Assembly: GCA_038858525.1 (NCBI GenBank)
Contig: JAWCFL010000005.1
Span: forward strand, 47,942 to 79,941
Reading direction: 5' to 3'
From: Candidatus Jordarchaeales archaeon
Lineage (GTDB): Archaea > Asgardarchaeota > Jordiarchaeia > Jordiarchaeales > Freyrarchaeaceae
Length of the DNA stretch: 32,000 bases
Within the stretch, counting starts at the first letter, position 1. Each line of letters begins with the position of its first letter. Of the stretch, positions 3,012 through 4,594 are shown piece after piece. The translations under genes and the position numbers were made by a program. The notes under the pieces were generated by a model. It was not told the origin of the DNA, searched no databases, and worked only from the letters and a program-made list of their open reading frames with translations.

Positions 3012-3284
3012 TTAGCCACCATGGGTTACACTCAGCACAGTTACAACGTCTCCATCGTTCACCTTTGTATTTAGCCCCTCGAGCACCCTTACATCTCTTT
3101 CGTTAAGCAATACAAGCATTCCCGGAGCCACTCCTCCTCCATTGACAACCATGCAGTAAGCCTCTTTACTAAGAGCTGACGAGAGGACGTCTCTAACAGA
3201 CGTTCCGTTCTCCACTTTTACATTTAAACTTCTGGCTCCAACTACTCTTGCTAGCCTTAATGGAAGCTCAACCTTAACCTCCAT
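3012..3284 (-). CDS. Ubiquitin-like beta-grasp protein (MoaD/SAMP/Urm1-like)
   Basis: About 90 aa, GMLVLLNERDVRVLEG...DGDVVTV and C-terminal THGG. ATG at 3284 follows GGAGG; the ORF track start is 3299. Confidence 0.85.
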   Translation of the reverse strand: MEVKVELPLRLARVVGARSLNVKVENGTSVRDVLSSALSKEAYCMVVNGGGVAPGMLVLLNERDVRVLEGLNTKVNDGDVVTVLSVTHGG

Positions 3285-3320: not shown

Positions 3321-3390
3321 GTCATCAGAGGAGATGCATCTCCTCACAGCCGAGCTACGGCTCAGAGTAGGTCAATCTCCTCATCAATTA
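3321..3390 (-). ncRNA. Putative box C/D guide sRNA
   Basis: Minus strand reads UUGAUGA (C, 3387-3381), 15 nt, CUGA (D', 3365-3362), GCCG-UAGCU-CGGC hairpin, UGUGA (C'-like), 15 nt, CUGA (D, 3328-3325). It fills a gap between ORFs and has a TATA about 25 nt upstream. Confidence 0.65.
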
Positions 3391-3408
3391 TACCGATGAA
3401 CGCTCAAA

Positions 3409-3416
3409 TCTATAAA
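3409..3416 (-). promoter_or_regulatory. TATA box upstream of the putative C/D sRNA
   Basis: TTTATAGA on the minus strand. The implied start site (about 3387-3390) coincides with the C box. Confidence 0.5.
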
Positions 3417-3424
3417 GCTAGCGT

Positions 3425-4594
3425 TCACCTCAACACTGCCCTAACTCTTCTTAAGGCTACGAGGGGAAGCGCCTCAAGTATGACTCTTCTGCATCCCTTA
3501 CGGCCAACGAGAAGGTCTGAGACTAATCTTTGAAGCAATTTTGACGTCACATCTAAACTCTCTCCGCCTCTTCTTTTAAGGAAGAGATCCCTAAGCCAAA
3601 GGCTCCATTTTAACTCGCCTCCAATCTCCCTCCTAAGTCGCTCACCATACTTCGTCATACAATTCCATTCTTCCTCGTAAGATTCAATTATGGTTTCAGC
3701 GCCCATTCTCCCGCTTTCCATCGCAAAATACATGCCCTCACCAGTTATCGCCGAAACCGCTCCCGCAGCATCCCCAAGAGCAATCCATCTCTCCCCACAA
3801 ATAGTCTTTAGAAGGCCTGAAAGAGGAACTACTGCGGTCTCGAACTTTAGAATTCTCCCCCCTTTAAGCTTGGGCTTTACTAAGGGGTGGCCTCTAACTA
3901 AATGGTCTAAGTAATTCTTGAGTGGGACTTTAACTTTTGAGAGTAGCGCCCCCACACCGACCACCAACGAATTTCTTCTCGGAAAAATCCAAGCGTAGCC
4001 AAAAGGTGAGACCTCGCTACCATAGTAGAAGAAGTTTCTGTCTCCGAACAACATATCAATATTCCCTTCACTGACCTCTATAATATACTGGACGCATAAC
4101 CCCAGCTGGTCTCTCCTCCATTTCCACCCTGAACTTCTCCTTGAAAGCGAGAAGACTCCATCAGCAAACACGACTGCGTCGCACTCGTAACTTCCGTTTC
4201 CATGGCAGGAAACACCTTGACTACTAAACAAAACCTCGTTCACTTTCTCCCCTCTGACAATTACCCCTCCCTCTCCCTCTACTCTTTCAGCTAAGTAGAG
4301 TCCAAGCTTTGTTCTGTCGACGTTCATCCCCACTCGCTCGTGATAGTCAACATTAAACTGCTTGTCGCCTACGGAAACGGCGACGCCATACAGCTCTCTT
4401 TCGGCAACATCCAAGCTAATTCTGAATTTTTTAACGGCTCTCTCGGTAAGCATTCCTCCACAAGGCTTCTCCCTGTTCGGCGTCTCCCTCTTATCAGTGA
4501 CCACCACTCTCAAACCGGCTTTCGCCAAGTGTTCACCGCAAATTAATCCAGCAGGTCCACCTCCCACGATCACAACGTCGGCTCTCATTTTCAT
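3425..4594 (-). CDS. Geranylgeranyl reductase family FAD-dependent oxidoreductase
   Basis: DVVIVGGGPAG, KPCGG, GYAWIFP, LGDAAGAVSAITGEGMYFAMESG. Confidence 0.88.
   Translation of the reverse strand: MKMRADVVIVGGGPAGLICGEHLAKAGLRVVVTDKRETPNREKPCGGMLTERAVKKFRISLDVAERELYGVAVSVGDKQFNVDYHERVGMNVDRTKLGLYLAERVEGEGGVIVRGEKVNEVLFSSQGVSCHGNGSYECDAVVFADGVFSLSRRSSGWKWRRDQLGLCVQYIIEVSEGNIDMLFGDRNFFYYGSEVSPFGYAWIFPRRNSLVVGVGALLSKVKVPLKNYLDHLVRGHPLVKPKLKGGRILKFETAVVPLSGLLKTICGERWIALGDAAGAVSAITGEGMYFAMESGRMGAETIIESYEEEWNCMTKYGERLRREIGGELKWSLWLRDLFLKRRGGESLDVTSKLLQRLVSDLLVGRKGCRRVILEALPLVALRRVRAVLR

Follow-up and report, generated by a model that had tools for sequence, protein, structure and literature searches.

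A conserved box C/D sRNA of the Jordarchaeia with predicted guides to both strands of 16S rRNA helix 34

A short, unannotated element on the minus strand of a Jordarchaeial contig is confirmed, by comparison of related sequences, as a genuine and conserved archaeal box C/D sRNA whose features exceed those expected by chance. In the reading that we prefer, to which we give a probability of about 85%, it is a dual-guide sRNA with its own TATA promoter that would direct 2'-O-methylation on both strands of helix 34 of the 16S rRNA. The window, that is, the whole 32,000-nt stretch of DNA that was analysed, covers positions 47,942 to 79,941 of the forward strand of contig JAWCFL010000005.1 in assembly GCA_038858525.1 of a Candidatus Jordarchaeales archaeon, and the coordinates of the element below are those of the window. 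The finding adds an unannotated methylation guide to the small catalogue of Asgard archaeal non-coding RNAs and moves the predicted target from a tRNA to the decoding-region helix 34 of the 16S rRNA. The mechanism and the class of RNA are textbook, and the value of the finding lies in annotation and comparison, not in a new concept.

The genome (G000) is a 2.09-Mb assembly of 63 contigs with 47.5% G+C and a completeness of 92.7%. Near-identical loci are found in public records of Candidatus Jordarchaeum sp. LHC_1308 and Jordarchaeia archaeon QC4. The stretch is also present in hot-spring metagenomes, and the host is a hot-spring Asgard archaeon (Jordarchaeum). An exact-pattern scan of public genomes matched two Jordarchaeia records; one further match, in Acinetobacter, lies within a gene and is attributed to chance. 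The assembly also holds 43 runs of 92-100 N (~98). Because two of these runs (C3:85990-86087 and C8:42675-42772) have duplicated flanking sequence of about 120-130 nt, the runs look like unmerged scaffold joins or gaps and not like hidden genes.

Anatomy and genomic setting of the element

The sRNA is predicted to be about 65 nt long and to occupy positions 3323-3389 of the minus strand, its ends being placed by the block bounded by boxes C and D, which is conserved in 11 genomes, and by weak matches to archaeal C/D families of Rfam. Box C (UUGAUGA, 3381-3387, minus strand, as are all the parts that follow) contains a GAUGA that is invariant in 11 of 11 genomes, and its looped-out position is U or G. 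It is followed by the C-D' spacer of 15 nt (GGAGAUUGACCUACU, 3366-3380), the last 11 nt of which (AUUGACCUACU, 3366-3376) constitute the D' guide, and by box D' (CUGA, 3362-3365), in which C-N-G-A is invariant. The linker between D' and C' forms a hairpin, GCCG-uagcu-CGGC (3349-3361), with a kept stem (3 bp conserved) and a variable loop. Box C' (GUGAGGA, 3341-3347) has an invariant UGA-N-GA, the variable N of which (G, A or U) pairs with position 2 of box D'. The C'-D spacer is the D guide itself (12 nt, GAUGCAUCUCCU, 3329-3340), and the element closes with box D (CUGA, 3325-3328), at which conservation stops and which reads CCGA in the sister genus (G004) and UUGA in the g3 genomes. The RNA thus possesses the terminal C and D boxes of the archaeal C/D class (consensus RUGAUGA and CUGA), with GAUGA and the final GA invariant in the 11 genomes, together with internal D' and C' boxes, in which position 2 of D' covaries with position 5 of C'. 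No obvious terminal stem was found in the sRNA of this genome.

A sequence-only reading of the same DNA had located the boxes, the hairpin, the TATA box and the flanking genes correctly, on the minus strand from about 3389 to 3323. It had also described two 15-nt spacers, of which the C-D' spacer stands at that length and the C'-D spacer shortens to 12 nt once box C' is aligned to its consensus. The spacers of archaeal C/D sRNAs are usually 10-12 nt long. The C-D' spacer exceeds this length both here (15 nt) and in all homologues (15-16 nt), and only its last 9-11 nt pair with the target.

The TATA box, TTTATA (3411-3416, minus strand), is embedded in a conserved motif, ACGCTAGCTTTATAG (3410-3425), which is kept in four of four genomes of the genus at about 25-28 nt upstream of box C; a similar motif is found in G004. 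Rfam returned no match in the window at gathering thresholds. A permissive scan with all families (E up to 10) gave seven weak matches, namely five archaeal C/D sRNAs and the plant C/D snoRNA snoR114, all six on this strand, and a microRNA; the best, sR42 (18.4 bits, E 0.027), lies below its gathering score. The proposal of a box C/D sRNA under its own promoter is supported by the conservation of the whole block in 11 genomes and by the archaeal C/D character of these weak matches. The genome also encodes fibrillarin (PF01269) and Nop5 (PF01798), in adjacent genes on contig C17, and two L7Ae-family proteins (PF01248).

None of the sequencing runs listed as containing the stretch is an RNA run. 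In three raw metatranscriptomes from the same study and one contig set, a single read (run X23) fits about 42 nt at 3333-3375 and then continues with at least 20 letters unlike the window; one read is no test of expression, and it could be a circular-junction or chimeric read or come from a relative.

Upstream of the sRNA lies a geranylgeranyl-reductase-like (GGR) gene (3425-4594, minus strand; Pfam GGR_cat and FAD-binding domains), and downstream a 90-residue Urm1/ThiS-like gene (3012-3284, minus strand; Pfam Urm1, E 3.9e-10, and ThiS). In every locus compared, the sRNA is found directly 3' of the GGR orthologue and on the same strand. Between box D and the Urm1-like gene there is, in this genus, neither a conserved second TATA box or promoter nor an oligo-T terminator, and co-transcription of the two is therefore possible within the genus. 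In the g3 homologues, a T6 run follows the sRNA and suggests an independent transcription unit there.

This arrangement raises an additional possibility, in which the RNA, besides guiding, would form a kink-turn that binds L7Ae in the leader of the Urm1-like mRNA, or would simply be processed from the 5' UTR of that mRNA. The start codon of the Urm1-like gene stands only 40 nt after box D, the intervening DNA is free of the terminator-like run seen after the g3 homologues, and binding of L7Ae to kink-turns of mRNAs is reported (PMC5539422). The adjacency of the Urm1-like gene, however, is confined to the genus, while the linkage of the sRNA to GGR is class-wide, and we consider a leader function, or processing from the leader, improbable. 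The GGR gene itself is irregular in two relatives: the orthologue in G003 (Ca. Jordarchaeum sp. LHC_1308; L050, about 1700-2750) aligns as short pieces in different frames, reflecting either a frameshifted or pseudogenised gene or indel errors of the assembly, and the orthologue in G002 (L053) likewise splits into two pieces.

Conservation and covariation in the Jordarchaeia

The element is 79-83% identical over the region in three other genomes of the genus. In the alignment within the genus, conservation sets in at the GAUGA of box C and ends at the CUGA of box D, and the flanks and the hairpin loop vary. A covariance model, R1, was built from the four sequences of the genus and, when searched against 11 Jordarchaeia genomes, found one clear homologue in each. 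Homologues of the genus itself score 90-99 bits, that of the sister genus 38 bits and those of the second family 30-35 bits, and the matches outside the genus (30-38 bits) have E values from 2e-7 to 5e-5. The boxes, whose conservation in relatives had been proposed as a check on the element, are accordingly kept in 11 of 11 genomes of the class. Invariant columns of the 11-sequence alignment comprise GAUGA, UGACCU, C-N-GA, the GC...GC of the linker stem, UGA-N-GA, the core of the D guide and the final GA; the first two letters of box D vary among the 11 genomes, and its GA is fixed.

Several of the variable positions change in pairs. Where the U-U pair of a kink-turn lies, the second nucleotide of D' faces the fifth of C' as U.G, U-A, C-G or G.U. 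In the linker stem, family f1 has C-G as its third pair, four g3 genomes have U-A there, and in two the pair is broken (C/A). G6 of box C pairs with position 1 of box D as G-C or G-U, a pair that is retained by the UUGA of g3. The proposed pairs are formed in 96.7% of the alignment cells, as against 23-58% when the partners are slid, two of the pairs have changed on both sides, and a covariation score as high as that observed was reached in 2 of 500 shuffles. Given 10 distinct but related sequences, the covariation of boxes and stem lends support without being decisive. In the g3 homologues of the second family (L056-L059), the 3' tail, UCAUCC, exactly complements GGAUGA of box C and could form an alternative terminal helix with it.

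The comparative data also bear on a perfect 18-nt palindrome over box C' and the D guide (3328-3345), which is present in the genome's own sequence. A perfect palindrome between two genes could be a protein-binding operator or a terminator hairpin, in which case the locus would contain no RNA gene. Changes without compensation interrupt the palindrome in G003 and G002, it is absent or broken in g3, and the parts that are conserved are the C/D boxes and the guide cores. An operator or terminator is thereby largely refuted by the comparison and is barely credible to us, and the palindrome looks incidental or genus-specific. The sides of box C and box C' also share a 9-mer, UGAGGAGAU, which is not conserved outside the genus and may reflect a duplication within the element.

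The D guide of this genus is self-complementary, and its 3' half can also pair with GAGGAGAU after box C (3375-3382), at the C-proximal GGAGAU. The predicted fold (MFE -26.2 kcal/mol) has this pairing as an 8-bp internal helix, and self-pairing of this kind might hinder the use of the guide. In the RNAalifold consensus of the 11 sequences, the helix that joins the C-proximal spacer to the D guide is absent; the self-masking of the D guide is therefore taken as genus-specific.

Predicted targets in helix 34 of the 16S rRNA

[quoted passage not shown] The 16S rRNA of the genome is located on contig C12 and provides the best rRNA match of each guide. The last 11 nt of the D' spacer form contiguous pairs, nine Watson-Crick and two G-U, with 16S positions 1159-1169 (GGUAGGUCAGU), with a duplex energy of -15.7 kcal/mol. 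The N+5 nucleotide is G1163, and the earlier assignment of the modification to the first G of GG holds. The D guide forms 11 contiguous pairs, 10 Watson-Crick and one G-U, with 16S positions 1002-1012 (AGGAGGUGCAU) at -17.6 kcal/mol, and its N+5 nucleotide is G1006. A search for an rRNA or tRNA with at least 10 nt of complementarity, which the sequence-only reading had suggested, thus yields 11 contiguous pairs with the genome's own 16S rRNA. Both sites are in helix 34, where the D' guide matches the 3' strand and the D guide the 5' strand. We take G1163 to be equivalent to E. coli A1197 and G1006 to E. coli G1050 from an ungapped alignment by eye to the E. coli sequence; a BLAST comparison of the 16S stretch with E. 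coli genomes gave no match.

When shuffled guides or random genomic 12-mers are used, the 16S score of the D' guide is attained by chance in about 1-2% of cases and that of the D guide in 0.2-1%, and the joint chance of both matches is of the order of 1e-4, the coincidence of both sites in helix 34 not being counted. The few equally good matches of the guides genome-wide are in coding regions, as expected by chance. The 23S rRNA was not found in the assembly, where the 16S on C12 is not followed by one, and three GC-rich stretches that were considered as candidates were rejected as not being rRNA. The 23S rRNA of the congener G002, scanned with both guides, contains no match comparable to those in 16S. 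Because its own 23S is missing from the assembly, the genome may hold a better target there.

The strongest evidence for a 16S target is comparative, as the D' guide and its target have changed together across genera. In this genus, the 16S rRNA reads GGUAGG and the D' guide ends in CCUACU. The 16S rRNAs of the sister genus (G004) and of the second-family genome G006 read GGCAGG, and their guides end in CCUGGA and CCUGCA, respectively. The other two genera have the D' guide ACUGACCUG(G/C)A and the 16S sequence GGCAGGUCAGU. Position 3 of the guide is A with a U in the 16S of this genome and of G002, and G with a C in the 16S of G004 and G006, and position 10 forms a G-U wobble in this genus that becomes a G-C pair in the other genera. 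The 16S rRNA of G006 (L062:1501-3122) is itself unusual, since its match spans 1622 nt as compared with about 1496 nt in other Jordarchaeia and its helix 34 is shifted by about 94 nt; it contains an insertion upstream of position 1000, possibly an rRNA intron.

The sequence-only reading had instead assigned the D' guide to a tRNA D-loop (AGUAGGUCAAUCUCC-like) and to the formation of Gm18. The assignment draws on the resemblance of AGUAGG to A14-G19 of the D-loop, and the genome's tRNA genes are difficult to find (5-11 by aragorn and five by Rfam), so that the tRNA search is incomplete. No tRNA-like site stands among the matches of the guide in the genome, which is 92.7% complete and in which most of the intron-rich tRNAs escape aragorn and Infernal. 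The proposed 15-mer, which was sought in the entire assembly, has no site with two or fewer mismatches besides the sRNA gene, and the best G-U-tolerant matches outside 16S are in open reading frames or are devoid of a D-stem context. Pairing with a tRNA would require the 5' part of the spacer (GGAG with CUCC), which is unconserved and reads GGGAAAC or GAAAAC elsewhere, and the implied D-stem (A10, G11:C24) would be atypical for a tRNA. Because the guide covaries with 16S, its core tracking the rRNA with a compensatory change included, a tRNA target is very improbable, and helix 34 is the target that we retain for the D' guide.

The D guide is less uniform. Its core, AUGCAUCUCC, is invariant in family f1 and fits 16S over 10-11 bp; in G004, the same 16S site is matched with 10 pairs, and in G005 and G006 we read eight Watson-Crick pairs and two more past one mismatch. 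In four g3 genomes (G007-G010), the guide has drifted and matches the 16S site weakly. The sRNA could thus be real with only the D' guide at work and the D guide either sequestered in this genus, by the palindrome or by pairing with GGAGAU, or decaying. Its degeneracy in G007-G010 points in that direction, as do the palindrome and the 8-bp internal helix, and many archaeal sRNAs have one orphan guide and many guides are without a predicted target (PMC4644070). Against this stand the invariance and fit of the core in f1, the lack of conservation of the palindrome, and catalogued guides of Sulfolobus and Methanopyrus that reach the same nucleotide. A nonfunctional D guide is unlikely on balance, though it deserves some weight, and a guide function on both strands is favoured.

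From the observed anatomy, conservation, covariation of boxes and stem, 16S complementarity, covariation of the D' guide with its target, and protein genes, we infer the following course of transcription, RNP assembly and methylation. A TATA promoter of its own in the 3' flank of GGR would drive the transcription of an sRNA of about 65 nt. L7Ae would bind the C/D kink-turn and the C'/D' motif, after which Nop5 and fibrillarin would assemble. The D' guide would then pair with the 3' strand of helix 34 and specify 2'-O-methylation of 16S G1163, and the D guide would pair with the 5' strand and specify methylation of G1006.

Comparison with archaeal and eukaryotic guides

Beyond the class, 268 Asgard genomes were scanned with an exact pattern of box C and the GGCAGG-type guide. 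All six genomes of the second family were matched, along with two more, G110 and G181, and the control pattern gave no match. G110 and G181 belong to other Asgard families, and both contain a box C and a 16-nt spacer ending in ACUGACCUGCU-CUGA, which is the same helix 34 guide. In G110 (L064:1495-1590), it is part of a complete dual-guide sRNA with a 5-bp terminal stem, GGCGC/GCGCC, whose D guide, GCGUGCACUACU, might reach the exact equivalent of yeast Gm1271. In G181 (L071:1495-1530), a C-guide-D unit is followed by a T-rich run. Their own 16S rRNAs are absent from the G110 and G181 assemblies, and the two candidate helix 34 sRNAs are leads. A phylum-wide scan for the genus-specific guide gave G366 as its sole extra match, which has no C' or D boxes and is consistent with chance.

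Archaeal guides to both helix 34 sites are already catalogued in the supplement of Dennis et al. 2015 (PMC4644070). The D guide of Pyrobaculum calidifontis sR32, UACUGACCUGCG, is assigned there to 16S G1184 (PMC4644070). It is nearly the same as the D' guide of the Jordarchaeia (ACUGACCUGCA in g3, AUUGACCUACU here) and has the same register, with N+5 on the same G of helix 34. Unlike the Jordarchaeial guide, it occupies the D position and not D', and it is accompanied by a guide to 16S C1205 in place of one to the 5' strand of helix 34. The boxes of sR32 are variants (AUGAUUG and AUGA), and no homology outside the guide is shown. For the other strand, Sulfolobus acidocaldarius sR6 (AAUGCACCUCAA) and Methanopyrus kandleri sR120 (GAUGCACCUCCG) are assigned to 16S G1026, the G in GGAG*GUGCAU (PMC4644070). 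Together with P. calidifontis sR49 (AAUGCACCUAAC), whose assignment to 16S G1026 is our own reading of the sequence and lies outside the table of PMC4644070, these guides match the D guide GAUGCAUCUCCU and its g3 version, AAUGCACCUAUU. All three have other partner guides, and none has a 3'-strand helix 34 guide as well. What seems particular to the Jordarchaeial RNA is the presence of two helix 34 guides in one sRNA, the D' spacer of 15-16 nt and the stable linkage to GGR.

In eukaryotes, the yeast 18S rRNA reads TAACAGGTCTGTGATGCCCTT at 1423-1443, with G1428 as the first G of AGGUC, and TGGTGGTGCATGGCC... at 1266-1290, with G1270 and G1271 as the two Gs directly 5' of UGCAUGG (PMC3940700). 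Gm1428, guided by snR56, corresponds to human Gm1490 and Arabidopsis Gm1431, and Gm1271, guided by snR40, to human Gm1328; both are in helix 34 of the decoding centre (PMC2794176). The predicted G1163 is the same nucleotide as yeast Gm1428, the target of snR56 and its counterpart U25/SNORD25, being the first G of AGGUC in the homologous stretch. G1006 is on the same strand of helix 34 as the target of snR40 and U32 and aligns with yeast G1270, one nucleotide 5' of Gm1271. In the all-family Rfam scan (E up to 10), neither SNORD25 nor snR56 matched the element. Most eukaryotic snoRNAs carry a single guide. A similar layout in human U25 is not counted here as evidence.

It is conceivable that snR56/SNORD25 is orthologous to the sRNA of the Jordarchaeia and to the related sRNAs of at least two further Asgard families, all being descended from an ancestral dual guide for both strands of helix 34 that was later split into snR56/U25 and snR40/U32. 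Common descent with SNORD25/snR56 is not shown, and we regard this history as speculative and give it only a slim chance. One of the two predicted sites nevertheless coincides with a 2'-O-methylguanosine of yeast, human and plant 18S rRNA and with a predicted site of Pyrobaculum, and this shared site agrees with the idea that rRNA methylation close to the A site is, at some positions, very ancient.
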